A DNA stretch of 52,606 bases from Amoebidium appalachense (Eukaryota > Protista > Ichthyosporea), in the NCBI GenBank assembly GCA_963693365.1, contig CAVNZM010000019.1, forward strand, positions 230,121 through 282,726, in the 5' to 3' direction. The translations under genes and the position numbers were made by a program. The notes below the pieces were generated by a model. The model made no database searches. It saw only the letters and a program-made list of their open reading frames with translations, and had not been told where the DNA came from. Positions 9,085 through 37,376 of this stretch are shown here, piece after piece (the first letter of the stretch is position 1; each line of letters begins with the position of its first letter).

Positions 9085-10973
9085 TCACTCACTATCACTG
9101 TCCGCAATCACCACAACATCAACGGGCCCCTCGTGCTTCTGCAGGTGCGCGACCTTGCGGCGACGCCCCAGCCGCCCGCGCTGCACATACACGTCGAGCT
9201 GTGTCTGCCCCTTGATCTGCTCGCCGCGATCGGCCAGGGGCGTGTCGAGGCTGACAGTGCGCCCGAGGTCCAGGGGGCGGATGTTGGGGAACTTGTCCTG
9301 GATAGCGCCCAGCCAGACGGCCATCTCAATTGGCACCCCGATGTCTGTGGGGACCACCACCTTGTCGTCAAGGGTGGACTGGAACAGCTGTCCCCTGCAG
9401 AAGCCGACGTACCAGCCCACAAAGTTGTTCATAAACGTGTAGAGCTGCTGCGTGGTCATGTCCATCCAGCAGGTCAGCACGTGTCCGGTCCACAGGCGGA
9501 TGCGCTCCTTGATGGCGCGCTGCAGCCCGTTGGTTGCCGCCGCAACCGACAACACATTGGTCGGGAACAGCACGCACACACCGGTAACGGCCATCACCAT
9601 ACTTGTGTACTTGCCGGCACAGCGCACTTCGTGGCCTTCCAACGTCCCCACACACATGGAGATGAATGCCCGAACCAGGCGCCGGAAGTCGGTGTTGTCA
9701 ATGTACTTGGCATCGGTTGACTGCGGCCCCAGCTTGACGCGTTCGAGGGCGGCGACCAGGGGCGCGAGCGCCTCATCCAGTGCGGTCTCGGCTGCCTGCT
9801 TGGGATCCTCAAGGGATCCACGAGCCTCCGCAGCAGCGACAGCTTCGGCCTCTGCAGCGGCAAGAGTTGCCAAGAAGGCCGTGTACTTCCCGTCGTTGAA
9901 GTTGTGCATGAGACGTGCAAACCCCTTTTCGATGTCAAGGGCCAGCCCACGGAAATCGCGAGCCAGCCAGCCCGAGTTCGCATCCGAGCCCATGATAGAG
10001 GCCATCCGTAACCCCTCTGGTTTCAAAAGGTGATCTTGTTCAGTACGACCACCGATGCTCTGTGGACAAGAAGGTTAGCCGCGAGTCTTTTTTTTTTCGG
10101 GTCATATATGGAGCCCTACAACGATGGATTACCCCTATAACAGCGAAAGATTGATGAGCGAGCTAAACCTTACATGGGGAAGAGCGCAGGAAGCCATAAA
10201 AAGAGCAATCATCCGAAATAAATGGAAGAACAACAAGGATTACCGAAGCAAACCCATGCCATCAACTGGGGGGCGGCCAAGAATTTCCTACAAGTTTACA
10301 CGCCAAACATTTGAAACAATTGTAAAAAGCTTCAGACCACCAGGCAAACAAGCAGAAGAAATTGTTCGCATGCAGCTGCAACAACGAGAGGGCGGGAAAA
10401 AGCAACGAATAGCCCGTGGGGAGATTGATCTCTTAACCGATAAAGATGTAATCGAAGTGAAACATGTTCGTGGTTGGAAAGGTGCACTCGGACAAATTAT
10501 GGTGTACGGGTTGGAATTTCCAAAGCACACAAGAAGAATCCATCTCTTTGGAGAGGCGCCACCCAGCTATTACGCAGACGTTGTTGCCTGTCTACTGAGG
10601 TTTGGAATCTCCGTTTCCATAGAGCCTGGGGAATGCGATATAGCAAAACTCAACGAATACCTCAACAACTCACCTTCTCAACCACCCGGTATTTGTGGGC
10701 AGGCATCGCAGCAGGAACACCATTCTGCCCCTTGAACATGACCCTCACGAAGTCATTGTAGCTCCGGTACCCCAGCAAGCGGAACACAGCACGCCCGGAG
10801 ATGGTCTCGGCGCTGTCCAGCAGGAACGGGTTGAGGAAGCGCAGCACCTTGACCACCACGTCGTCGCCCACGGTGCCCAGCAGGCGCTCGAGCTCGGGAG
10901 AGATGGGAGGGAAGCCGGCCTCTTTGGCACCGGCAATGTTGAGGCGCTCGTAGATGGCATAGGTGGAAGCCAT
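9085..10973 (-). CDS. Two-exon AntA/MSV199-like DNA-binding protein with coiled coil, copy A (exons 10973-10674 and 10059-9085, ~424 aa)
   Basis: Exon 1 is exactly 100 codons ending AAG|GTGAGT; acceptor GCTAAC...CTTCTTGTCCACAG; spliced ISGRAVFRLLGY...YRVVEK|SIGGRTEQDHLLKPEGL resembles antirepressor/MSV199-type domains. Confidence 0.75.
10060..10673 (-). other. 614-nt GT-AG intron harbouring an antisense nuclease ORF
   Basis: GTGAGT donor, CTAAC branch-like site, pyrimidine tract and CAG; phase 0. Confidence 0.75.
10124..10735 (+). CDS. Intron-nested AntA-like + PD-(D/E)XK nuclease-like protein (203 aa), copy A
   Basis: N-terminal DYRS...GGRPRISYKFT motif; C-terminal GEIDLLTDKDVIEVK...WKGALGQIMVY...RIHLF (D...EVK plus QxxxY). 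Confidence 0.8.
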   Translation: MDYPYNSERLMSELNLTWGRAQEAIKRAIIRNKWKNNKDYRSKPMPSTGGRPRISYKFTRQTFETIVKSFRPPGKQAEEIVRMQLQQREGGKKQRIARGEIDLLTDKDVIEVKHVRGWKGALGQIMVYGLEFPKHTRRIHLFGEAPPSYYADVVACLLRFGISVSIEPGECDIAKLNEYLNNSPSQPPGICGQASQQEHHSAP

Positions 10974-11371
10974 GGTCGCTGGTGGAAGAGTTGGGGCTTT
11001 GGGTTTGGGGGTTGAGTGCTGTGTGTGTACCGTAAAGGTGCTGGCTGTCCAGCGCTTGCTGTGATTATATAGGGAGGCGTCCGGCGCTTCATTGGTTGTA
11101 CGCTTCATTGGTTGTAGGAGGAGAGGAATGGAATCCAGCATTCGATTGGAGCGGATTGCAAGAGAATACTGGTCCCAGATGATTGGGTCGATTTGTTCGG
11201 CGCTACGTGCACTTTTTACACATATGCTGCATGCCATTCCCCTGACCAATCGAATGCTGCATTCCACCCCCCCCCCCCAATGAAGCGCTGCTTTACGGTG
11301 CTCACACACCCGTCACAACCCCTAGTGCCAACTTTTCAATTCTAATTGATAATAGCGCTATCATCGGTAAG

Positions 11372-11570: not shown

Positions 11571-11709
11571 GAGGGAGGGAGCGCAGATCCTTGCTTTGCA
11601 CACTTTGTACCGTCTGTAATCACTTACCTGCTCACTCAAGTGAATTCGAAGCACACAGATGTGATGGTGTGTGTGTGCGTCTGTGTGCACACGTGTGTGT
11701 GTGTGTGTG

Positions 11710-11786
<77 letters not shown>

Positions 11787-11950
11787 CACGTGTGTGTGTG
11801 TGGTGACGGTGTGGGGGATGGGGGGTGGGGGGAGGGAGGGAGCGCAGATCCTTGCTTTGCACACTTTGTACCGTCTGTAATCACTTACCTGCTCACTCAA
11901 GTGAATTCGAAGCACACAGACGTGATGGTGTGTGTGTGCGTCTGTGTGCA

Positions 11951-12029
<79 letters not shown>

Positions 12030-12183
12030 TGTGTGGTGACGGTGTGGGGGATGGGGGGTGGGGGGAGGGAGGGAGCGCAGATCCTTGCTTTGCACACTTT
12101 GTACCGTCTGTAATCACTTACCTGCTCACTCAAGTGAATTCGAAGCACACAGATGTGATGGTGTGTGTGTGCGTCTGTGTGCA

Positions 12184-12271
<88 letters not shown>

Positions 12272-12592
12272 GGGTGGAGGGGGGGGGGTGTGTGTGTGTG
12301 TGTGTGTGGTGACGGTGTGGGGATGGGGGGGGGGGGGGAGGGAGGGAGCGCAGATCCTTGCTTTGCACACTTTGTACCGTCTGTAATCACTTACCTGCTC
12401 ACTCAAGTGAATTCGAAGCACACAGATGTGATGGGTGTGTGTGTGTGTGTGTGTGGAGGTGTGGGGAGGGGGGGGGGGGGGAGGGAGCGCAGATCCTTGC
12501 TTTGCACACTTTGTACCGTCTGTAATCACTTACCGCTCACTCAAGTGAACGAAGCACACAGATGTGATGTGTGTGTGTGCGTTGTGTCAATT

Positions 12593-12655
<63 letters not shown>

Positions 12656-12946
12656 TGACGGTGTGGGGAGGGGGGGGGGAGGGAGCGCAGATCCTTGCTT
12701 TGCACACTTTGTACCGTCTGTAATCACTTACCTGCTCACTCAAGTGAATTCGAAGCACACAGATGTGATGGTGTGTGTGTGTGTGTGTGTGTGGTGACGG
12801 TGTGGGGATGGGGGGTGGGGGGAGGGAGGGAGCGCAGATCCTTGCTTTGCACACTTTGTACCGTCTGTAATCACTTACCTGCTCACTCAAGTGAATTCGA
12901 AGCACACAGATGTGATGGTGTGTGTGTGCGTCTGTGTGCACACGTG

Positions 12947-14464: not shown

Positions 14465-16497
14465 CCTGTTGGAAGTAGAGTCCGCTGTGACTAGGGTCGT
14501 CGTGGCGCGCTTGGGCGCTGACCCGTTTTTTACTGCTTTCAGTGTGTTAACTCCATGACTGAACTCCATGACTTAACTCCATGACTTAACTCCATGTCTG
14601 CACCTGGCAGAGACGTGGCTTATATACCCGTGGGGCAGCAGTCTGGAATGTAATCCGGATGCCAGGCGCTAATCGGATTGGTTACTTTCATTTAGATATC
14701 TCTGGGACCAGTGAACCAATCGTTTGCAGTCAAAACACAATTGGCAACATTCCTCAACTATGCAGATGTGCATGTGGTGATCGAGTGTCAGCATGTGTCT
14801 ATGTACACGGAACCAATTGTAAAGCTAACATACACATATAGTGGAGTGAGCGTAAGTCTGCACTCCAACACCCCTACCCAATTGGAGAAGTGTACACACC
14901 ACTAGAGAAGAGAGAGTGAGTGTGGCTGCTTGCAGGGTAGACCGGGGTGTGCATTCCACTGTGGTGCGTGCCCCGCCAATGAAGTGGAATACTTGACGTT
15001 GATGTCGCAGGCTGCTGCGGATGGAGTTTGTGGAAGCGAAAGTCTCTACTTCACGGAAATACGCTCGCGGGTGTAGGGTACAGCCTAGAAGTCGGTTTCT
15101 GGGCTCCTCCGTTCAAGGCGTCGTAGGGGACGTGAAGTTAGAGGCCGCGGTGTCGTGTCTGGGCCCATAACCCTGTTGGAAGTAGAGTCCGCTGTGACTA
15201 GGGTCGTCGTGGCGCGCTTGGGCGCTGACCCGTTTTTTTTACTGCTTTCAGTGTGTTAACTCCATGACTGAACTCCATGACTGAACTCCATGACTGAACT
15301 CCATGACTGAACTCCATGACTGAACTCCATGACTGAACTCCATGACTAAACTCCATGACTGAACTCCATGACTTAACTCCATGACTGAACTCCATGACTG
15401 AACTCCATGACTGAACTCCATGACTGAACTCCATGACTGAACTCCATGACTGAACTCCATGACTGAACTCCATGACTGAACTCCATGTCTGAACTCCATG
15501 TCTGCACCTGGCAGAGACGTGGCTTATATACCCGTGGGGCAGCAGTCTGGAATGTAATCCGGATGCCAGGTGCTAATCGGATTGGTTACTTTCATTTAGA
15601 GATCTCTGGGACCAGTGAACCAATCGTTTGCAGTCAAAACACAATTGGCAACATTCCTCAACTATGCAGATGTGCATGTGGTGATCGAGTGTCAGCGTGT
15701 GTCTGTGTACACGGAACCAATTGTAAAGCTAACATACACATATTGTGGAGTGAGCGTAAGTCTGCACTCCAACACCCCTACCCAATTGGAGAAGTGTACA
15801 CACCACTGTAGAGAAGAGAGAGTGAGTGTGGCTGCTTGCAGGGTAGACCGGGGTGTGCATTCCACTGTGGTGCGTGCCCCGCCAATGAAGTGGAATACTT
15901 GACGTTGATGTCGCAGGCTGCTGCGGATGGAGTTTGTGGAAGCGAAAGTCTCTACTTCACGGAAATACGCTCGCGGGTGTAGGGTACAGCCTAGAAGTCG
16001 GTTTCTGGGCTCCTCCGTTCAAGGCGTCGTAGGGGACGTGAAGTTAGAGGCCGCGGTGTCGTGTCTGGGCCCATAACCCTGTTGGAAGTAGAGTCCGCTG
16101 TGACTAGGGTCGTCGTGGCGCGCTTGGGCGCTGACCCGTTTTTTACTGCTTTCAGTGTGTTAACTCCATGACTGAACTCCATGACTGAACTCCATGACTG
16201 AACTCCATGACTGAACTCCATGACTGCACCTGGCAGAGACGTGGCTTATATACCCGTGGGGCAGCAGTCTGAAATGTAATCCGGATGCCAGGCGCTAATC
16301 GGATTGGTTACTTTCATTTAGATATCTCTGGGACCAGTGAACCAATCGTTTGCAGTCAAAACACAATTGGCAACATTCCTCAACTATGCAGATGTGCATG
16401 TGGTGATCGAGTGTCAGCGTGTGTCTGTGTACACGGAACCAATTGTAAAGCTAACATACACATATTGTGGAGTGAGCGTAAGTCTGCACTCCAACAT
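14465..16497. repeat. Tandem triplication of a ~0.7-0.9-kb unit (14465-15171, 15172-16077, truncated 16078-16497)
   Basis: Near-identical units, each with minus-strand GGTATATAAG and CCAAT-type motifs oriented toward the BAG-like gene. Confidence 0.9.
15258..15503. repeat. 13-bp minisatellite (AACTCCATGACTG)n, ~19 units; shorter arrays at ~14549-14600 and ~16162-16226
   Basis: Directly visible; about 4, 19 and 5 units in the three triplicated copies. Confidence 0.95.
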
Positions 16498-16511
16498 CCC
16501 CAAAAAACCAC

Positions 16512-17344: not shown

Positions 17345-17468
17345 CACCATCACATCTGTGTGCTTCGAATTCACTTGAGTGAGAGGTAAGTGATTACAGA
17401 CGGTACAAAGTGTGCAAAGCAAGGATCTGCGCTCCCTCCCTCCCCCCCCCCCATCCCCCACACCGTCA

Positions 17469-17521
<53 letters not shown>

Positions 17522-17669
17522 TCACACACACACACACACACACACCATCACATCTGTGTGCTTCGAATTCACTTGAGTGAGCAGGTAAGTGATTACAGAC
17601 GGTACAAAGTGTGCAAAGCAAGGATCTGCGCTCCCTCCCTCCCCCCCCCCCCCATCCCCCACACCGTCA

Positions 17670-17719
<50 letters not shown>

Positions 17720-17866
17720 GTGACACACACACGCACACACACACCATCACATCTGTGTGCTTCGAATTCACTTGAGTGAGCAGGTAAGTGATTACAGACG
17801 GTACAAAGTGTGCAAAGCAAGGATCTGCGCTCCCTCCCTCCCCCCCCCCCATCCCCCACACCGTCA

Positions 17867-18345: not shown

Positions 18346-20281
18346 ATGGCTTCCACCTACGCCATCTACGAGCGCCTCAACATTGCCGGTGCCAAAGAGG
18401 CCGGCTTCCCTCCCATCTCTCCCGAGCTCGAGCGCCTGCTGGGCACCGTGGGCGACGACGTGGTGGTCAAGGTGCTGCGCTTCCTCAACCCGTTCCTGCT
18501 GGACAGCGCCGAGACCATCTCCGGGCGTGCTGTGTTCCGCTTGCTGGGGTACCGGAGCTACAATGACTTCGTGAGGGTCATGTTCAAGGGGCAGAATGGT
18601 GTTCCTGCTGCGATGCCTGCCCACAAATACCGGGTGGTTGAGAAGGTGAGTGTGTTGAGGTATTCGTTGAGTTTTGCTATATCGCATTCCCCGGGCTCTA
18701 TGGAAACGGAGATTCCAAACCTCAGTAGACAGCCAACAACGTCTGCGTAATAGCTGGGTGGCGCCTCTCCAAAGAGATGGATTCTTCTTGTGTGCTTTGG
18801 AAATTCCAACTCAAACGTACACCATAATTTGTCCGAGTGCACCTTTCCAACCACGAACATGTTTCACTTCGATTACATCTTTTTATCGGTTAAGAGATCA
18901 ATCTCCCCACGGGCTATTCGTTGCTTTTTCCCGCCCTCTCGTTGTTGCAGCTGCATGCGAACAATTTCTTCTGCTTGTTTGCCTGGTGGTCTGAAGCTTT
19001 TTACAATTGTTTCAAATGCTTGGCGTGTAAACTTGTAGGAAATTCTTGGCCGCCCCCCAGTTGATGGCATGGGTTTGCTTCGGTAATCCTTGTTGTTCTT
19101 CCATTTATTTCGGATGATTGCTCTTTTTATGGCTTCCTGCGCTCTTCCCCATGTAAGGTTTAGCTCGCTCATCAATCTTTCGCTGTTATAGGGGTAATCC
19201 ATCGTTGTAGGGCTCCATATATGACCCAAAAAAAAAGACTCGCGGCTAACCTTCTTGTCCACAGAGCATCGGTGGTCGTACTGAACAAGATCACCTTTTG
19301 AAACCAGAGGGGTTACGGATGGCCTCTATCATGGGCTCGGATGCGAACTCGGGCTGGCTGGCTCGCGATTTCCGTGGGCTGGCCCTTGACATCGAAAAGG
19401 GGTTTGCACGTCTCATGCACAACTTCAAGGCGACGGGAAGTACACGGCCTTCTTGGCAACTCTTGCCGCTGCAGAGGCGGAAGCTGTCGCTGCTGCCGCG
19501 AGGCTCGTGCGCTGCTCCCTTGAGGACCGGCGCCGAGCCAAGCAGGCAGCCGAGACCGCACTGGACGAGGCGCTCGCCCCCCTGGTCGCCGCCCTCGCAC
19601 GCGTCAAGCTGGGGCCACTCATCGAGCCGCATGCCTCAACCGACGCCAAGTACATTGACAACACCGACTTCCGGCGCCTGGTTCGGGCATTCATCTCCAT
19701 GTGTGGTGGGGACGTTGGAAGGCCACGAAGTGCGCTGTGCCGGCAAGTACACAAGTATGGTGATGGCCGTTACCGGTGTGTGCGTGCTGTTCCCGTCCAA
19801 TGTGTTTTCCGGGTTGCGGCGGCAACCAACGGGCTGCAGCGCGCCATCAAGGAGCGCATCCGCCTGTGGACCGGACACGTGCTGACCTGCTGGATGGACA
19901 TGACCACGCAGCAGCTCTACACGTTTATGAACAACTTTGTGGGCTGGTACGTCGGCTTCTGCAGGGGACAGCTGTTCCAGTCCACCCTTGACAAGGCGGA
20001 CAAGGTGGTGGTTCCCACAGACATCGGGGTGCCAATTGAGATGGCCGTCTGGCTGGGCGCCATCCAGGACAAGTTCCCCAACATCCGCCCCCTGGACCTC
20101 GGGCGCACTGTCAGCCTCGACACGCCCCCTGGCCGATCGCGGCGAGCAGATCAAGGGGCAGACACAGCTCGACGTGTATGTGCAGCGCGGGCGGCTGGGG
20201 CGTCGCCGCAAGGTCGCGCACCTGCAGAAGCCCAAGGGGCCCGTTGATGTTGTTGTGATTGCGGACAGTGATAGTGAGTGA
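18346..20281 (+). pseudogene. Two-exon AntA/MSV199-like gene, copy B (intron 18646-19264), exon 2 broken by several frameshifts
   Basis: Same splice sites as A; exon 2 is split across ORFs 19298, 19453 and 19937. Could be real decay or consensus error. Confidence 0.6.
18584..19202 (-). pseudogene. Intron-nested AntA-like + PD-(D/E)XK nuclease, copy B, frameshifted
   Basis: Near-identical to 10124..10735 but split into ORFs 18873..19262 and 18558..18860 by small indels. Confidence 0.6.
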
Positions 20282-21753: not shown

Positions 21754-22542
21754 ATGTACATGTCACAGACACTGCACACCGCGATGGAAATCGGCGCTCC
21801 TGGCGCTGCGCCTGTCTCCCAGCCGGCCGTATTCAACACCTTCACGTTTCCACCCACCCCACAACCCGACCTGGACATCATACAGAGTACCGACTTCATT
21901 CCGCTGACGTCCGACGATTTTGCTGCTTTTGACAACCAACTAGGTGACGGCTCCATGCTCCATGCGCCCACCCCGACGACGGCTAAGAGCCACGGCCAGC
22001 ACCACGTCTTCGACTTCGACATGGTCTGCGGCGAGACAATCCCCCCCTCTCCGGCGCGTCCTGTTCCCGCACGTCTGCATCTGCAAGCGGTCTCCTCTCA
22101 CGCCCCCACGCTGCCACCCACCACAACCACGCCAGCAACAACATGGTTTGGCCGGCTCAGGTCTGCCGAGAACCAGGATTCCGATACGAGACAATGGAAG
22201 CGCTCGCGCGCTAACATCTCAATGACCAAAAAGCCACCTGGTGAAATCAAAGCCCTCGCCACTGCTGGTGATTGGAGGCGCCATCTTGCACCCCTGCCTG
22301 TTTCACAGATGTTGGGCGAGGCGCTCGACAGACTTAGCCCGTTGTGCCTTGTACCGTTCATCAGCTGCACGCTCCCTTTTGCAGCTAGCAAAGAGCAGCT
22401 CTCCTACCTCGACGCTGGTAGCATCTGTGCGCTTCTCGGCTTCAGGGACATCGATGAGATACGCGACCGTCTCGATCAGGCCAAAATCGCAAACGCCCGT
22501 GATGTACCAGGCACAGAAGCGGTAGGAGGCCCCCCCCCCCCC

Positions 22543-22579
<37 letters not shown>

Positions 22580-22646
22580 GGCTTCCACACACACACACAC
22601 ACACACACACAAGGCTTCCACACACACACACACACACACAAGGCTT

Positions 22647-22720
<74 letters not shown>

Positions 22721-23685
22721 GGCTTCCACACACACACACACACACACACACACAATTTTTGAAGCTTCCACCGACACTTTATCGACACCCCTACTAAATG
22801 GTGGATCCGGGCACCATAGTGGTCGTGGCTACGGTGGCGTTTTGCGTGGGCATGTTCTTTCTCAGTGTCCTTGACTATCTCTTCCCCGTGTTCTCGGAAC
22901 CGATTAAGGGGGACCCACCCCCGCCATACTCAATCCATGCTGATACTTGGTGATTCCTACAGGGTTCCCCGCACTACTACAAGGAGGGCAACTTCATGCT
23001 GGTCTCGCCCGCTGCGTTTCTTCACCTGACCACCCAGGTCTTGTACGAGTCCCCCCTGGCCCTCGATTTTCTGGGATGGTTTAACAGCGCCCGCAACAAG
23101 GAGCTGCACTTGCACGAAACCCGGCTCTATGAGAAGACCCGCGGCGCGCCCCCTTCCACCACCCCTCTGGATGCCACCCGCCACATTCGCGCTACCTTTG
23201 TCGGTTTCCTGGTGGCCACACTCAGCTCGACATCCGTGCTTGACGTCCACAGCCTGGTGACCATCCTTGAAAAGGTGGCCAATGTGCAAGTCACTTCACG
23301 CTTCAAGACCCGCAACATCTGCGCCCCGCACGCCGAGGCGCTGGTTTTCAAGGTGCTTGCCCAGCGCATCAATATAGACACGGGCGTTTCGATAGCGTCT
23401 GCGCTCGACATCAACACGTTGCACCTCTACACGTTTCTCTCGCGCGCCCTTGAGGCTCTGGATGTTGACGTACCCCATCCACACGGCGTCCCAGCCAGCA
23501 GCACCCACAAGGACCCCCAGCTGCGCGACCTGAGGAAGCTGGGTCGCTCCCTCGAGAAGGACTTTGCCGGCATACGCCAGTTGCCCCTGGAGCCCAAGTC
23601 CTTCTTCTATGCCATGCCGGAGCGCCAGGACACCCCGGCCGGACACGAAGTGTGCGCGTGCTTCAGGATGGATCGGAGTCTTTAG
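21754..23685 (+). CDS. Two-exon Bro-N-like protein, copy B (exons 21754-22521 and 22963-23685)
   Basis: GCG|GTAGGA donor and TTCCTACAG|GGT acceptor in frame; different N-terminus and promoter from A and C. Confidence 0.7.
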
Positions 23686-27830: not shown

Positions 27831-29339
27831 ATGGGCGCCGATCAGTCCACCCTTTCTCCCAGCGCGCAACAGCTGGTCTTGGGCAACCACTACCTGCTTC
27901 TGTACATCTGCTCCTTCCTGGATGCACGCTCACGTCGCAGCATTGCGCTCACCTGCCGAGCGCTTCGCCACGTACACGAGGCAGAGCTGGCGCGCCCGAA
28001 CAGCCACATGCGCGTCGACCTGTCCAAGGGTCCGAAGTCAATCGAGTTTGCCACGCGCGTCCGTGCCACCCACGTCCTTGCCACCACTGCTGACTACAAG
28101 CGCCTTGCCGAGCTTCCGCCCATGCGCTTCGTTCTCCACATGGTTCTTGATGAGTACCGGGACCTGGCCAACCACCATGCAAAGGCTGCCCATAACCACC
28201 GCTACACCAGCACGGAGCCCATCTACCCAGACCTGTTTCCCAACCTCAAGGTCGCAGAGGTCAACTCCTTCAAGTGCCGCACCCCCCTTGTCGCCCCCTT
28301 CGCCTTGCTGGGCCGCGCTATCCAGAACCTGACGAGTCTGACCCTTGCCTTCTCTGCCACTCCCAGGCCCACACCTGGTGTAGTCATGGATCTTGCTGCG
28401 CTCGAAAACCTGGCCCATCTGCACGTCCACCTGTGCACGCGTGTGAACCCCTCTAACATCTACGCCATCCCCAGCACGGCGCTGCATGTGCCTGCGGGCC
28501 TTGTGAAACTGCATCTGGACTACCGCTTCCGCTCCATGTGCGGCCACCAGTACGGCTACGGCAGCGGCGGCTCCGCTCCCGGTATCCACAACATCCACAA
28601 CATCGAGTCCTGCGTCAACATGCGCAATGTGCACGTGTGCGTCTTTGGCATGGTGGTGTTCGACACCATCAATCGCGCCCACCGTGTCGAGCTGCTGTGC
28701 TCACAGGCCCGCGGCACGCTGCGCGGGTGCACCAGCGTCCAGATCGGCAAGGAGGTGCGCGACATCGAGATCACCACCACCGGGGACAGCGCCAGTGACT
28801 ACCCAGGCAACCGGCTCCTTGTGGCCGGCGCCCGCGAGTTCGAGTGCTTCCATCCCGCCCACAACTGGGCGCTGCAGGACGTCCATGTGCTGGAGATCAT
28901 GCACGTGCCCCACAGCCCGCGCGCGCTGGCGGCCATCGCGCAGGCCGTCAACCTGCGCTCGCTGACCGTCACGGCGCCCATGTTCAGCGACAGGGAGCTC
29001 GTCTACCACATGCCCCCGACCATCGAGATGGTGAACTTCAGGCACGTGCGCCTGGTCGTGCTCGCAGACCCCAGCGGGCTCATCCGCCCGCTTGTGTTTT
29101 CCAGCGACTGCGACCTGGTCCTCTACAACCACTGGCTCCTGCGTGCGGCCGGGTTCCTGATGGACTCGAAGTGGGACCGGTTCATGACACGGCTGCTCCA
29201 CATCACGCAGTGCGACATGCCGTGGGCGCTCGGGCGGAAGCTGAAGTACATGGGCGACAAGTCGTACAGGCACCTGCCGTTCCCCGAGGGGGGGGGGGGG
29301 TGTAGGGGGGGGGGGGTGTTTAGAGCCCTAGACACTTAG
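27831..29339 (+). CDS. F-box protein with MGxxxS N-terminus and LRR-like body, copy B
   Basis: LLLYICSFLDARSRRSIALTCRALR fits the F-box pattern; LxxL-type segments follow; the stop is displaced by poly-G length relative to copy C. Confidence 0.8.
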   Translation: MGADQSTLSPSAQQLVLGNHYLLLYICSFLDARSRRSIALTCRALRHVHEAELARPNSHMRVDLSKGPKSIEFATRVRATHVLATTADYKRLAELPPMRFVLHMVLDEYRDLANHHAKAAHNHRYTSTEPIYPDLFPNLKVAEVNSFKCRTPLVAPFALLGRAIQNLTSLTLAFSATPRPTPGVVMDLAALENLAHLHVHLCTRVNPSNIYAIPSTALHVPAGLVKLHLDYRFRSMCGHQYGYGSGGSAPGIHNIHNIESCVNMRNVHVCVFGMVVFDTINRAHRVELLCSQARGTLRGCTSVQIGKEVRDIEITTTGDSASDYPGNRLLVAGAREFECFHPAHNWALQDVHVLEIMHVPHSPRALAAIAQAVNLRSLTVTAPMFSDRELVYHMPPTIEMVNFRHVRLVVLADPSGLIRPLVFSSDCDLVLYNHWLLRAAGFLMDSKWDRFMTRLLHITQCDMPWALGRKLKYMGDKSYRHLPFPEGGGGCRGGGVFRALDT

Positions 29340-29952
29340 TCATGTGATTGTAGTCGAATCTGTGGGCCTTGATGGTCACCTTGTTTGCACTTAGTTTCTT
29401 TGTACTTACTGGTTTCATCATGAATATGTGCCTCAGAACTTTGCCAAATACACATAGGTTCATGTGAACCTCCATGTCTGACCCTTGTCGTCTCACCCAT
29501 TCGGAGTACAGTGCATAGAGAGATGATGTTTTTACGGGGGATCCCGGGGGGAACTTGTGCCTGTTGTTTTCGTCTTTCAAAAATTCAATAAAAAACTGCT
29601 TGACCAGCTCGTATCCCTTGCTGTGTCGCAGATTGGAGTCTTTTTTCCACGGCCTTGTTATCCACTCGCCTATCCTATCGTCAATAAGTATGCGCACCCC
29701 CCGTGACTTCCCGTCGTCCAAGGCAGACTTGTATGCACGCCACGGGCAGTGGCCGTACAAATAAAGTGTTGGGCGATGGTTGGGGTATGTGCTCTGTCTT
29801 GCAAGGATTGTTTGTAGGCCGTCTACGAATCGGGTGATGTGGACCACCAGTATCACGTCGGTTCCCGTCAGCACGCAGTCCTCCCCGAGCTTTGTGGTTT
29901 CCGGTTGGTATAAAAGGCGTGTTACGATTTCAGACCCATCACTTTCAGTCAT
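29320..29952 (-). CDS. 210-aa protein with C-terminal D5-C-like winged helix, copy B
   Basis: SSLYALYSEWVRRQG...MNLCVFGKVLRHIF parallels SSGLFQLYQDWHRLN...PSLRSFGIAIKKIL in the adjacent helicase; TATAAAAG upstream. Confidence 0.65.
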   Translation of the reverse strand: MTESDGSEIVTRLLYQPETTKLGEDCVLTGTDVILVVHITRFVDGLQTILARQSTYPNHRPTLYLYGHCPWRAYKSALDDGKSRGVRILIDDRIGEWITRPWKKDSNLRHSKGYELVKQFFIEFLKDENNRHKFPPGSPVKTSSLYALYSEWVRRQGSDMEVHMNLCVFGKVLRHIFMMKPVSTKKLSANKVTIKAHRFDYNHMTKCLGL

Positions 29953-30048
29953 CTTAGAGTAGTGAACAAAAATATTGGAGGTGGGCCTTTTATAGGTTTT
30001 GGGTGGGTGGGGGTGGGTCATCGATTATTTTCTGTGCTACAAGGAAGG

Positions 30049-31560
30049 ATGCAGGCGGCCATGACATTGTTTTCCGGTGGTGTGTCGACACAGGAGCTCG
30101 ACAAGGTAGTTGCACGGACCCTCCGTCTGTTTGATGCATTTGAGAACACTGAGATGAGGGGTCTTCCGTTCATGCCTGCATCCTGTGACCTCCGGCTGTG
30201 GAAGAAATCGGAGGTGGAAGAGTTTATTGGATCACATGTTGCGCATATTCAAGGGACAAAACTGTATGTGATGAAGGCATTTTGCCCCATACGTCTCAGC
30301 TATGCTTTCAAGTTGGTCAGCAAGGAGGAGCTGTCCATTTCACTCTCTGGATACTCCTTCCCCCAACCACCCGAGAAGGTGGGAAAGGGAACAAAGGCCC
30401 TTCCGCCCATCAACGGCACCGATGTTCTTCGTTCATCCGCCATTCCCAAGTACATGGGCATACTGTTCGACCCCTCTGACCCTGACCCTCGCACCGGTGC
30501 AAAGGCGGCCGCCACGTCTGGGATGTACCGTATGTACAACCCGTTCCGGGGGCTGCCCATTGTGTTCAACCCACAGTACCCCCTCAATTTTGATTTGACC
30601 GGTCCATTCAACAGACATGGGTTGGAGATTCTGTGCAACGGGCGTGCGGAGGAGTATGAATACCTGCGGATGTGGGTTGCTCACATGTTCCAGCATCCCA
30701 AGAGCAAGCCCGGCACCGCCCTGCTTTTTCAGTCTGAGCAGGGAGCGGGGAAGAACGTGTGGTGGCAGGCACTCATGGATATACTGAGCCCGGAGTACTG
30801 TGCTTATATCATCCACAAGGAACACATCGCAGGCAAGTTTAATCAGCACCTGGCAAACAAACTTCTGGTTGTGTGCGACGAGGTGGTCTGGGGTGGTTCT
30901 CACGAACTCAACAACATCATGAAGGCCCGCATCACACAGTCAACCATGATGCTGGAAAAGAAAGGGTGTGATGCGGTAAACATTGACTGCTACGAGAGGT
31001 ACGTCATGCTGTCGAACGAAGAGTGGCCTGTCCGGATCGAGCAGTCATGCCGCAGATACGCCTGCTTTAGGGCAAGCTCCGCCCGCATTGGGGACCACCA
31101 GTACTTTGATTTCCTGGTTTCCCATCTCAAGCAGCCTGCCGTTTTGGAGGCCATTTATCACGAGTTCATGGCAGTTCAGAACGTCCCTGGGACTATGCCA
31201 CGCCCACTTGAGAACGACGTGAAGCAGACACTGAGAGGCATAAGCCGATGTGACGAGGCACAGTTCCTGCGAGACCTCTTGGACCATCAGAATGGATGTG
31301 AGAATATGACCTTCATTCAGGACAACGCATATGTCACATCAAGTGGCCTCTTCCAGTTGTACCAAGATTGGCACCGTCTCAATGCAAGGGACCGCAACAT
31401 GCCCAGCCTCAGGAGTTTCGGGATCGCCATTAAGAAGATACTCGGGGAGAGGAAGTGTGTGCGCAGTGTACATACCACACGGTGGGACAGCCATCCACCT
31501 ATGGCATCTGAAAACGTCTCCTGCTACTGTCTCAATAGGTCTGCTGTATTCAAACACTAG
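30049..31560 (+). CDS. D5-like/DUF5906-type SF3 helicase with C-terminal winged helix (~503 aa), copy B
   Basis: Walker A SEQGAGKN, Walker B LLVVCDE, KARIT, motif C VMLSN and RRY arginine finger; no primase domain recognised. Confidence 0.9.
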   Translation: MQAAMTLFSGGVSTQELDKVVARTLRLFDAFENTEMRGLPFMPASCDLRLWKKSEVEEFIGSHVAHIQGTKLYVMKAFCPIRLSYAFKLVSKEELSISLSGYSFPQPPEKVGKGTKALPPINGTDVLRSSAIPKYMGILFDPSDPDPRTGAKAAATSGMYRMYNPFRGLPIVFNPQYPLNFDLTGPFNRHGLEILCNGRAEEYEYLRMWVAHMFQHPKSKPGTALLFQSEQGAGKNVWWQALMDILSPEYCAYIIHKEHIAGKFNQHLANKLLVVCDEVVWGGSHELNNIMKARITQSTMMLEKKGCDAVNIDCYERYVMLSNEEWPVRIEQSCRRYACFRASSARIGDHQYFDFLVSHLKQPAVLEAIYHEFMAVQNVPGTMPRPLENDVKQTLRGISRCDEAQFLRDLLDHQNGCENMTFIQDNAYVTSSGLFQLYQDWHRLNARDRNMPSLRSFGIAIKKILGERKCVRSVHTTRWDSHPPMASENVSCYCLNRSAVFKH

Positions 31561-32160: not shown

Positions 32161-32913
<753 letters not shown>

Positions 32914-33125: not shown

Positions 33126-33562
33126 ACCCTTTAATCTCATATTTATCTAATAGCGCTACGATTGGTAAGTGTGATGCCACTCACCGACTATCCAATCAAA
33201 TCACTGGAATGACTTCATCGGCGCTTTCATTATTCAAACTGTCGGGATGCGCGCGATTTGATTGGTGAGTCGAAGAGTTGCTACAGAAACCGACTTTCCA
33301 TACCCCACACACCACACACACATACATCTATATATATCATACACATATACATACAAGCGTACATATTTTTATACATATGTATACTTATATACACATAATA
33401 TATATATTTCTTTGTATTCTAATTTTTATTTGTATACACTGACCTTTTGATATTCTTCTAACCTACTTCCAAAAGGATCATGTAGTGATACTAGTTCAAT
33501 GTTCATTTATTATAAATAAATATTTACAAAAGTGAAGTTCATATGTCTTTTATTTTAGTATA

Positions 33563-33609
<47 letters not shown>

Positions 33610-34357
33610 GATACCTACACATATACAAGAATGATACTGTAACATACGTATACAATGTAGGTGTATGGTGTATGGTGTGTGGTGTGTGGGGTATGGAAAG
33701 TCGGTTTCTGTAGCAACTCTTCGACTCACCAATCAAATCGCGCGCATCCCGACAGTTTGAATAATGAAAGCGCCACTGACCTCATTGCAGTGATTTGATT
33801 GGATAGTCGGTGAGTGGCATCACACTTGAATATGAGATTAAAGGGTTTATATATCAAAAAAAGCAAAAAACGCGAAAGCTTTGACCAATGCAATCGCTGT
33901 ATTAATATATAAACCCTTTAATCTCATATTTATCTAATAGCGCTATGATTGGTAAGTGTGATGCCACTCACCGACTATCCAATCAAATCACTGCAATGAG
34001 GTCAGTGGCGCTTTCATTATTCAAACTGTCGGGATGCGCGCGATTTGATTGGTGAGTTGAAGAGTTGCTACAGAAACCGACTTTCCATACCCCACACACC
34101 ACACACACATACATCTATATATATCATACACATATACATACAAGCATACATATTTTTATACATATGTATACTTATATACACATAATATATATATATATAT
34201 ATTTCTTTGTATTCTAATTTTTATTTGTATACACTGACCTTTTGATATTCTTCTAACCTACTTCCAAAAGGATCATGTAGTGATACTAGTTCAATGTTCA
34301 TTTATTATAAATAAATATTTACAAAAGTGAAGTTCATATGTCTTTTATTTTAGTATA

Positions 34358-34398
<41 letters not shown>

Positions 34399-34634
34399 TA
34401 TATTTATATAGATACCTACACATATACAAGAATGATACTGTAACATACGTATACATGTAGGTGTATGGTGTATGGTGTGTGGTGTGTGGGGTATGGAAAG
34501 TCGGTTTCTGTAGCAACTCTTCAACTCACCAATCAAATCGCGCGCATCCCGACAGTTTGAATAATGAAAGCGCCACTGACCTCATTGCAGTGATTTGATT
34601 GGATAGTCGGTGAGTGGCATCACACTTACCAATG
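33126..34634. repeat. Duplicated AT-rich palindromic unit: four ~160-bp arms in alternating orientation
   Basis: Arm ATTGGTAAGTGTGATGCCACTCACC...TTTCCATACCCCACACACC is forward at ~33160 and ~33948 and reverse ending at ~33827 and ~34633; (TA)n-rich spacers. Confidence 0.9.
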
Positions 34635-35186: not shown

Positions 35187-37376
35187 ATGGCTTCCACCTA
35201 TGCCATCTACGAGCGCCTCAACATTGCCGGTGCCAAAGAGGCCGGCTTCCCTCCCATCTCCCCCGAGCTCGAGCGCCTGCTGGGCACCGTGGGCGACGAC
35301 GTGGTGGTCAAGGTGCTGCGCTTCCTCGACCCGTTCCTGTATGACTGCAAGGAGACCATCTCCGGGCGCGCCGTGTTCCGCCTGCTGGGATACGGCAACT
35401 ACAACGAGTTTGTGAGAGCCATGTTCAAGGGGCGCAATGGGTCGCGTGGTTTTGTCCCTGTCGGAAACTACCGTGTTGTCGAGATGGAGGTATGAACATT
35501 CCCTCTGACGCAAGTGCAACCGTGGCTAGCATGTCGAGCTTGCTTTTAGATGAGCGTGTCAAATTTCTTGCTATGCTAACTGTATCACAACAACCTGGTT
35601 CAACAGACACAATTACACCGTGTTCCATGATTGACTCTATAACAAACAAGTAGAACGAGTTGGGCGCTCTACCAAACAAGTGGATTCGTTTGCGATGATC
35701 GGAATAGTACTTTCCATAGACAAGGATCTCTCCAAGCGAATGTTTCCATGAGCGCACATGCTTCACTTCGATTACATCACTATCTGTTAACAAGTCTATT
35801 TCCCCAGCAGGCACTGTTCTTTTCCCGCCTCCTTCTCTTTTCTGTAGATTTGCACAGATCTTCTCCTCTGGCTGGTTCTTTCCGAGTGTCTGTTCGAGCC
35901 TTTTAGCCAGTTTGCTGTAAGCACGATCAGTTAGAAAAAACGATTTGCCTGGCATGCCCCTGCTGCCTGTGCGTACTCTTGTAACTCTGTAATCTACATT
36001 CTCTACCCAGCCCAGTCGTCTTATGGTCCGTATTATATTCTCAGTCATTCTATTTCTTGAGAGCCCATACTTGCGCGCTATGGTATCCGCGCTCATTTGG
36101 ATACTCACCATACTCTTTGTATAGAAAAAATAGACGACTCTATTTGCTGCTAAAACTCTGACGTCAAAATGACGTGTCAGCTACAAGAGCTGAGACGTCA
36201 TCACTTTTCAGCTTTGCAGCTGAAAAGTTTTGATTGGTGCTGGGGGTATCAGGATGATGTCAACACTTTTCAGCATTTTGGCTGAAAAGTTTCGATTGGC
36301 TCCTGTGGCATCTGATGACGTCATCACTTTTGACATTCTCAACTCAAAACTCTAACGTTAACCAACCATGCTCTCATTTTACACAGAGTACCATAGGACG
36401 TCCTGGTATGGACCACCTACTGACTGCCGATGGCTTCCTTGTTGCTGCTCTGGCTTCTCCAGCCCTGGTCGGCAACACTGTTCGTGTGTGGGTCCTTGGT
36501 GTCAAGAACGCCTTTGCCCGCATGGCTGATACCAACAAGGATGAAGCTCTCTCCGCCCTGCGCGCCACCCTTGCTGCGGCCGAGGCCCGTGCTGCTGAGA
36601 CTGCCACCGAGCGCGACCAGGCCATCAACGACAAGGAGGCCGCGGAGGCCGCCCAGGCCGAGGCACTCGCCACCCTCGCTGCCGCTCTCGCCCGCGTGAA
36701 GCTCGAACCACTCACCCTCCCGACCCGCATGCCTCTCACAACCGGCGGCACGTACACGGACAACCATAAGTTCAAGCGCCTGACGCGCGCGTTCGCGTAT
36801 GTGTGCGTGGACACGCTGTACGGCGAAGGCGTGCGCTGCGCTAGCACGTACACGGGCATGATCATGGCCACCACGGGCGTGTGCTTTGTGTTCCCGTCGG
36901 GGGAGATTTCCAACATCATCGCCACCACCGGGCTGCAGAAGGCCATGAAGGAGCGCATCCGGCTGTGGACCGGCGAGGAGCCCAAGTACTCGACCGACAT
37001 GACCACGCAGCAGCTGTACACCTTTGTCTACAACTACACGCGCTGGTACGTCGAGTACTGCAAGGCGCCGGTGCTGCGCCAGTCGACCATCAACAACGCG
37101 GACACGGGCGCTGCCGAGTACGAGGTGCACGTCGAGCTGGCGTCGTGGCTGGAGGCCATCCAGGACAAGTTCCCCGACATCGAGCCGCTGGAGCTCGGGC
37201 GCACCGTCAGCCTCAACGACCCCCTTGTCGAGCGCGGCGAGCAGCTCAAGGGGCAGACCCAGCTGGACGTGTATGTGCAGCGCGGGCGGCTGGGGCGGAA
37301 GCGCAAGGTCGCCCGCCTGCAGAAGCCCGAGGGCCCCGTTGATGTTGTGGTGATTGCGGACAGTGATAGTGAGTGA
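35187..37376 (+). CDS. Two-exon AntA/MSV199-like protein, copy C, divergent allele (exons 35187-35489 and 36387-37376, ~430 aa)
   Basis: GAG|GTATGA donor and CATTTTACACAG|AGT acceptor, phase 0; spliced NYRVVEME|STIGRPGMDHLLTADGFLVAAL. Confidence 0.75.
35425..36111 (-). CDS. Intron-nested AntA-like + PD-(D/E)XK nuclease-like protein (228 aa), copy C paralogue
   Basis: WVENVDYRVTRVRTGSRGMPGKSFFLT and GEIDLLTDSDVIEVKHVRSWKHSLGEILVY...RIHLF. Confidence 0.8.
   Translation of the reverse strand: MVSIQMSADTIARKYGLSRNRMTENIIRTIRRLGWVENVDYRVTRVRTGSRGMPGKSFFLTDRAYSKLAKRLEQTLGKNQPEEKICANLQKREGGGKRTVPAGEIDLLTDSDVIEVKHVRSWKHSLGEILVYGKYYSDHRKRIHLFGRAPNSFYLFVIESIMEHGVIVSVEPGCCDTVSIARNLTRSSKSKLDMLATVALASEGMFIPPSRQHGSFRQGQNHATHCAP
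35490..36386 (+). other. 897-nt GT-AG intron harbouring a divergent antisense nuclease ORF
   Basis: Equivalent position to the A/B intron; CTAAC upstream of the acceptor; sequence otherwise very different. Confidence 0.7.

Follow-up and report, generated by a model that had tools for sequence, protein, structure and literature searches.

A GT-AG intron carrying an antisense gene for a predicted PD-(D/E)XK nuclease in a virus-like repeat of Amoebidium appalachense: a possible spliceosomal homing intron

The homing endonucleases of group I/II introns are encoded by genes hidden in sequence that is removed from the RNA. Homing is not known as a way in which spliceosomal introns spread. In the literature searched, the sole candidates are the shintrons, spliceosomal homing introns of metagenomic mirusviruses (Nat Microbiol 2025, PMC12768974). 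That paper reports 334 endonuclease genes of four types in spliceosomal introns, 15 of them PD-(D/E)XK, and notes that counterparts seem to be missing from the genomes of eukaryotes and from other viruses; homing is inferred there, not demonstrated. Its supplementary file 2 (part 3 of 9) has 45 rows in which an id is given for the nested gene, and 44 of these label that gene as lying on the opposite strand, although some of the ids lie outside the listed intron; the PD-(D/E)XK rows with an id seen in this file are on the opposite strand in 4 of 4 cases. As far as this part of the file goes, the antisense layout is therefore the rule in shintrons. Two further kinds of virus-derived or virus-like regions in eukaryote genomes are relevant. 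Endogenous giant-virus genes of punuiviruses possess host-type introns averaging 176 bp, and the words 'nested' and 'homing' do not occur in the available text (PMC13692296). The 'giant repeats' of a protist genome are described, in the available part of PMC11244446, as intron-poor tandem clusters of up to 50 kb that are rich in tyrosine recombinases.

The DNA analyzed here, referred to as the window, is a stretch of 52,606 nt from the ichthyosporean Amoebidium appalachense. A sequence-only reading of it had proposed that two ORFs are joined in frame by a phase-0 GT-AG intron which is nearly filled by an opposite-strand ORF overlapping exon 1 by about 60 nt. Both parts of this proposal are borne out, the second with an ORF of 203 aa and an overlap of 62 nt. 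The split gene, called the host gene below, has the following features in copy A.

11065-11186, minus strand: putative Pol II promoter of the host gene, with a TATA-like box at 11065-11071 and four CCAAT boxes
10973-10674, minus strand: exon 1 of the host gene, 100 codons, ending in VVEK, GC3 0.82
10673-10060, minus strand: GT-AG intron, 614 nt, phase 0
10059-9085, minus strand: exon 2 of the host gene, 324 codons plus stop
10124-10735, plus strand: nested antisense gene, 203 aa, overlapping exon 1 by 62 nt

The joined exons form a gene of 424 codons. Its splice sites consist of the donor AAG|GTGAGT, a branch-like GCTAAC at 10079-10074, a pyrimidine tract and the acceptor CAG|AGC. There are 8 in-frame stops in the intron; the exon-1 frame meets a stop 9 nt past the donor and the exon-2 frame opens 15 nt ahead of the acceptor, so both splice sites lie at the limits of the reading frames. 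The nested ORF fills the intron except for 64 nt. Searches with exon 1 gave no Pfam or NCBIfam match and a weak PHROG repressor match (E 0.006). No homologues of the host gene were found in the protein database (searched with exon 2, and with exon 1 among longer proteins), in viral contigs or in metagenomes, and the Atlas gave no usable match. By these searches the host protein is an orphan of no known family. The region 11065-11186 is likely its Pol II promoter, as judged from its sequence motifs.

Eight public sequencing runs were compared for evidence of removal of the intron. A contig of run X10 joins position 10059 to 10674 and skips exactly 614 nt (10060-10673), with ends CT..AC on the plus strand; it has a depth of 42.8 and 0 other letters over 9850-10059. 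The VVEK|SIGG junction, which the sequence-only reading had put forward for checking, is thereby present, exactly joined, in a single contig whose short side has 30 letters against the tool's bridging standard of 31 (likeness set at 80), from a run whose type is not on record and for which the tool's guess is 'DNA?'. X10 comprises 52 million letters, with 12 records aligned. No joint was detected in the deep runs X2 and X3 (119 and 158 records) or in the thin runs X19, X4, X15 and X18; in X3, which has the same organism code as X10, the intron is covered throughout. The eighth run, X23, which is guessed to be RNA, gave no aligned record, a result that does not bear on expression. Since X10 is small, with depths of 42-52 over the exons and 0-21 over the intron, and X3 shows the intron without a joint, X10 is probably RNA. 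If it is DNA, the joined form is the intron-less allele that homing needs. Another record of X10 (record 2) is a variant copy of the intron, in which five bases differ around the branch site (10070-10088) and CTAAC and the acceptor are kept. The public runs hold many variants of the host gene: the summed depth in X2 and X3 is about 10 times higher over the 5' part of exon 1 than over the intron, a ratio that is not a copy number, and several different loose ends occur. Zero Rfam families reached the gathering score in the window, and the A intron, with a folding z of +1.49, is less folded than 20 of 20 shuffles. Self-splicing is therefore unlikely, and the intron is likely removed by the host spliceosome.

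Two more copies of the host gene are present in the window. Copy C, which was absent from the earlier reading, represents a diverged type.

18346-20281, plus strand: host gene, copy B; exon 1 18346-18645, intron 18646-19264, exon 2 19265-20281
18558-19202, minus strand: nested nuclease gene, copy B, with its frame broken by small insertions
35187-37376, plus strand: host gene, copy C; exon 1 35187-35489, intron 35490-36386, exon 2 36387-37376
35425-36111, minus strand: nested antisense nuclease gene, copy C, 228 aa, 40% identical to that of A
36112-36386, minus strand: promoter-like region in the C intron, 275 nt long and upstream of the nested ATG, with 2 CCAAT boxes, 6 TGACGT half-sites and three repeats of about 62 nt

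The B intron is 99% like that of A. The junction at 18646-19264, which had been recognized before as the same as in A, holds, and the nested frame and exon 2 of B are not intact, the latter being frameshifted by small indels. The small insertions possibly represent decay or assembly error; the indels are absent from the listed indels of the public runs compared, so assembly error is possible. The C intron has a length of 897 nt (GAG|GTATGA ... ACACAG|AGT) and lies at the same site relative to exon 2 as that of A, the identity of exon 2 between A and C being 55%. The pattern GT..CTAAC..CAG is shared by all three copies, and the stop codon of the nested gene lies inside exon 1 in both types. All three window copies carry the intron, and the search for intron-less alleles suggested earlier has accordingly yielded no such allele in DNA. 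Units A and C are about 100% identical up to 10834, 50-77% identical over 10833-9274 and about 90% identical at the end of the gene, and the remainder of the unit is mostly 87-97% alike. With the drop in identity confined to 10833-9274, the intron-bearing middle of the gene stands out as a diverged patch within otherwise similar units; the patch extends about 850 nt into exon 2.

Region 36112-36386 is likely the promoter of the nested gene in C, to judge from its motif content: the TGACGT count was reached in 0 of 2000 resamples and the CCAAT count in 104 of 2000. The A intron has no room for a promoter-like region of this kind. The three repeats of about 62 nt are located at 36194-36349 and nowhere else in the window. 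Two of them have the palindrome ACTTTTCAGC-N6-GCTGAAAAGT, and they are a candidate operator for the predicted DNA-binding domain of the nested protein.

The protein encoded by the nested gene of copy A can be divided as follows.

Residues ~1-70: likely DNA-binding domain
Residues 71-171: predicted PD-(D/E)XK domain
Remainder: low-confidence tail, with the stop codon in exon 1

The motif consists of D102, E111-V-K113 and Q124-x-x-x-Y128. E78, D102, E111 and K113 are present in both nested A and nested C; an alignment of 137 sequences shows no variation at E78, E111 or K113 and has D102, Q124 and Y128 in at least 90% of its rows. The AlphaFold model of nested A has a pLDDT of 84.8, with 95-98 in the core. 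The top VIA-align match of residues 71-171 is the Pyrococcus repair endonuclease NucS (2vld, Z 9.8, rmsd 2.6, 88 aligned), followed by 1y88 (Z 8.4) and 4g6u (Z 8.3), and the top rows are nearly all PD-(D/E)XK-type nucleases. Foldseek against the PDB was weak, with only E above 0.03 (EndoMS, XPF), and a PDB sequence search with the family profile gave no meaningful match. Based on the model and the alignment, the nested protein is predicted to be a PD-(D/E)XK nuclease with intact catalytic residues, in agreement with the motif noticed from the sequence alone. The label 'AntA-like' given to its N-terminus at that time fared less well: the match to the PHROG anti-repressor Ant has E 0.097, antirepressor rows of BFVD have E ~0.03, there is no Pfam match, and a 13-sequence profile of the N-termini of homologues gave E 1e-6 and 4e-8.

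In the nuclease core, the comparison of A with C gave a pS of 0.91, where silent sites are saturated, and a pN of 0.31; the nested frame is thus under purifying selection. Judged by GC3, which is 0.44 in the nested genes and 0.76-0.82 in the exons, the codon composition of the nested genes is foreign to the host gene. A quick tree of 74 rows was built from the best 70 of 150 database rows plus the 4 window rows. Nested A and C are sisters in it (SH-aLRT 92), and the tree, with few columns and 3 of 71 branches starred, is otherwise poorly resolved. A relative of 508 aa (P0011), listed with a Daphnia assembly, falls close to the nested proteins in this tree, at a branching without resolution.

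An exhaustive search found 1350 representatives of the nuclease family at E 0.001 or better. The N-terminal domains of the relatives are swapped, KilA-N being present in 15 of 137. Giant viruses and phages have small PD-(D/E)XK domains joined to KilA-N, Rha, Bro-N, HTH or zinc fingers; the domain and motif are the same and the N-terminus is variable, with examples in BFVD from Megavirus, Tetraselmis virus 1 and FirrV-1-A34. The viral models closest to the nested protein in BFVD are KilA-N-type proteins of giant viruses. In the Atlas all matches of the nested protein are under 0.8, no Pfam, NCBIfam or PHROG model covers the nuclease domain, and no paper on the activity of this small nuclease family was found in the literature. 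At 22 viral loci, judged by ORF lists, none has an evident split gene around the nuclease; the viral relatives look free-standing, whereas the nuclease genes of copies A to C are nested antisense in an intron. In several phage contigs (L004-L009) the family lies, as seen by eye, two genes upstream of a terminase-like ORF. Such a place two genes upstream of the terminase is typical of free-standing homing endonucleases.

The window contains three copies of a unit of about 17-18 kb, with A inverted, B and C direct and CA-rich arrays between them. The unit contains DUF5906/D5-like helicases, a weak F-box-like gene, a C2H2 zinc-finger ORF and orphans, as found with Pfam and PHROG.

30049-31560, plus strand: DUF5906 / D5-like SF3 helicase (Pfam E 3e-19; PHROG DNA primase E 2e-28)
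48468-49640 and 49719-51254: further SF3 helicases
52276-52606, plus strand: intact non-nested nuclease paralogue with the catalytic motif kept, cut by the window end, on the same strand as the preceding C2H2 zinc-finger ORF
29320-30021, minus strand: degenerate nuclease paralogue without D/E/K, fused to a weak Pox_D5-like domain, head to head with the helicase

A second copy of the degenerate paralogue is located at 47735-48367. For the degenerate paralogue the hhalign probability is 90% (E 1.5e-6), and the Pfam family PF03288 matches with E 0.02 and 0.003. No capsid, polymerase, integrase or mirusvirus hallmark gene was recognized in 21 ORFs scanned by Pfam, and neither the helicase nor the nested genes have close relatives among the viral contigs searched. 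The unit is likely an endogenous virus-like repeat in a eukaryote, in a probable nuclear genome.

Several other features of the unit were observed. In 29320-31560 and 47735-51254 an SF3 helicase stands beside the dead nuclease/Pox_D5-like fusion without a recognized primase domain, and unit C has two helicases in tandem; the fusion is possibly a co-opted replication partner. Tandem CA-rich repeats of about 200-260 nt occur at 11627-12878 (minus strand, 6 times), 17386-17784 (plus strand, 3 times) and 32217-32873 (minus strand, 4 times). Each of these repeat units has a perfect donor-like AG|GTAAGT, and those of A and B share the strand of the host gene and are situated upstream of it; they may be a terminal repeat or micro-exons in repeated form. 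A further gene belonging to the unit, at 39428-41360 (also 21754-23685 and 7131-5270), is apparently split by an ordinary CA-rich intron at about 40150-40638, as placed by eye. Its junction resembles by eye the same kind of DNA-binding domain, and the profile gave no score. Between units B and C, the AT-rich region 33126-34633 has two copies of about 700 nt, each an imperfect palindrome; an origin or a hairpin end is conceivable here. At 14465-16500, between units A and B, which diverge from each other, three repeats of about 900 nt adjoin a TATA-like box and hold a 13-nt tandem array (TGAACTCCATGAC), which is longest at 15193-15555.

Compared with the shintrons as described in the available text, the present intron likewise is a GT-AG intron nearly filled by an antisense endonuclease gene and has no group I/II signature. 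It appears to share those of their defining features that are testable here. Unlike the mirusvirus genomes in which shintrons reside, the window has no mirusvirus or capsid gene recognized among 21 ORFs by Pfam, and consists of tandem and inverted repeats of about 17-18 kb in a likely nuclear genome. The shintron hosts given in that text are mostly virion genes (MCP, terminase, portal and jelly-roll), whereas here the host is an orphan gene, and the nucleases of 203-228 aa are shorter than the 345-563 aa in the five listed PD-(D/E)XK shintron rows. The MING-1 introns of mirusvirus terminases, described in the same source (PMC12768974), are likewise gene-carrying spliceosomal introns at one site across diverged hosts; according to that source they are without a recognizable nuclease active site, whereas the present protein keeps a predicted one. 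Introns of groups I and II have a ribozyme core, and here none was found by Rfam or folding; removal would need the spliceosome. The unit resembles the punuivirus genes and the giant repeats in being a virus-derived or virus-like region of a eukaryote genome, and differs from the giant repeats, as far as their available description goes, in that no tyrosine recombinase was recognized in the window. The novelty that the sequence-only reading had implied for an endonuclease in a GT-AG intron does not hold, as the concept is already known from the mirusvirus shintrons (PMC12768974, as far as its text was available). What is new is the third, diverged copy C, with the intron at the same site and a 40%-identical nuclease under purifying selection.

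We consider the chances about even that the intron works as a spliceosomal homing intron in the manner of shintrons. Beyond the anatomy, the joined form, the site shared by two diverged types and the selection on the nested frame, this mechanism would involve the joined form as mRNA, expression of the nuclease, cleavage of the junction and conversion of the flanks. The host spliceosome would remove the intron and so hide the insertion. An antisense transcript of its own would serve to express the nuclease, and the reverse orientation would keep its codons out of the host pre-mRNA. The nuclease would then cut the exon-exon junction of intron-free gene copies in sister elements; repair would copy the intron in and co-convert the flanks, and this conversion would be the source of the diverged patch around the intron. 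As the nested stop codon is taken from exon 1 in both types, the gene is tied to one site, as expected from homing and not from free transposition. The dip in identity centred on the intron-bearing part of the host gene was counted as support for homing, and the one intact non-nested paralogue and two dead ones in the window were counted against it.

Homing has its most serious competitor in a reading that we hold to be quite possible, though short of an even chance: the intron is real and its cargo gene nested, and there is no homing. A viral DNA-binding/nuclease gene would have landed antisense once, would have been tolerated via cryptic splice sites, and would since have passed on by vertical descent, being retained because it serves the element in some way such as DNA processing, competition or regulation. 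Free-standing relatives in phages, giant viruses and this window are in line with such an origin, as are the presence of the intron in every copy seen, the single origin of A and C, and the apparent ordinary CA-rich intron (~40150-40638) of the other unit gene, by which the element uses host splicing anyway. Part of this evidence does not discriminate, since finding the intron in all copies seen is expected from a fixed homing intron and from a cargo gene alike; long-term retention at one site fits vertical descent just as well as homing, and the diverged patch could come from ordinary recombination between repeats. Against a mere cargo gene, the unit already has non-nested paralogues, the arrangement is close to that of shintrons, and A and C differ most around the part of the gene that bears the intron.

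The remaining explanations concern the nature of the intron itself. It is improbable that the joined form in X10 is an intron-less DNA allele and not mRNA, the intron being a DNA insertion with splice-like ends and the allele its homing target. The tool's guess 'DNA?' and the fact that no listed run is on record as RNA speak for this, but X10 is a small run with an exon depth of 42-52 against 0-21 in the intron, X3 with the same organism code has the intron throughout and no joint, and the cut falls exactly at GT..AG. Still less credit is due to the view that functional splicing is absent and that three independent genes are present, namely exon 1, the nuclease gene and exon 2, which is largely refuted by the exact X10 joint. 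It can draw on an in-frame Met 18 codons into exon 2 of copy A and on the profile of related N-terminal domains across the exon junction, which scored 0.8 and -4.3 bits, not above the shuffle top of 1.6; besides the joint, it conflicts with the same splice geometry in two diverged types and with the residues (GR..DHLL..G) conserved between A and C ahead of the first Met in exon 2. It is scarcely credible that the intron splices itself as a member of group I or II and has a homing endonuclease of that kind. The C intron does fold better than its shuffles (z -3.2), but the palindromes of its promoter-like part are the likely source of this signal, no Rfam family matches, all 20 of 20 shuffles are more folded than the A intron, which has 64 nt outside the ORF, and the GT/AG ends come with CTAAC. 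Introners are intron-generating transposons that have terminal inverted repeats and whose copies, nearly identical to one another, occupy unrelated sites. An introner was rejected here: no repeat pairs the two intron ends, and within the window copies occur only at the homologous site.

The mirusvirus shintrons are untested for want of cultures, while the present case likely lies in a eukaryote's own repeated DNA. Its exons are found precisely joined in a public run, its site is occupied by two alleles of deep divergence, and its nuclease is under selection and only about 200 aa long. The intron is a small system for testing whether an exon-exon junction is cut, and a candidate for the way in which cargo genes for nucleases give rise to new introns. 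A more far-reaching proposal, which we regard as rather doubtful, is that a spliceosomal homing intron is active here in an element that is nuclear, multi-copy and not a mirusvirus. A small KilA/AntA-type PD-(D/E)XK nuclease, recruited from among the cargo of the element itself, would cut paralogues that are free of the intron, and would thereby drive the spread of the intron as well as the turnover of the middle of the host gene. If this is true, homing of spliceosomal introns would be testable in an organism with several sequenced samples, and such introns would arise independently from any nuclease cargo gene landing antisense.
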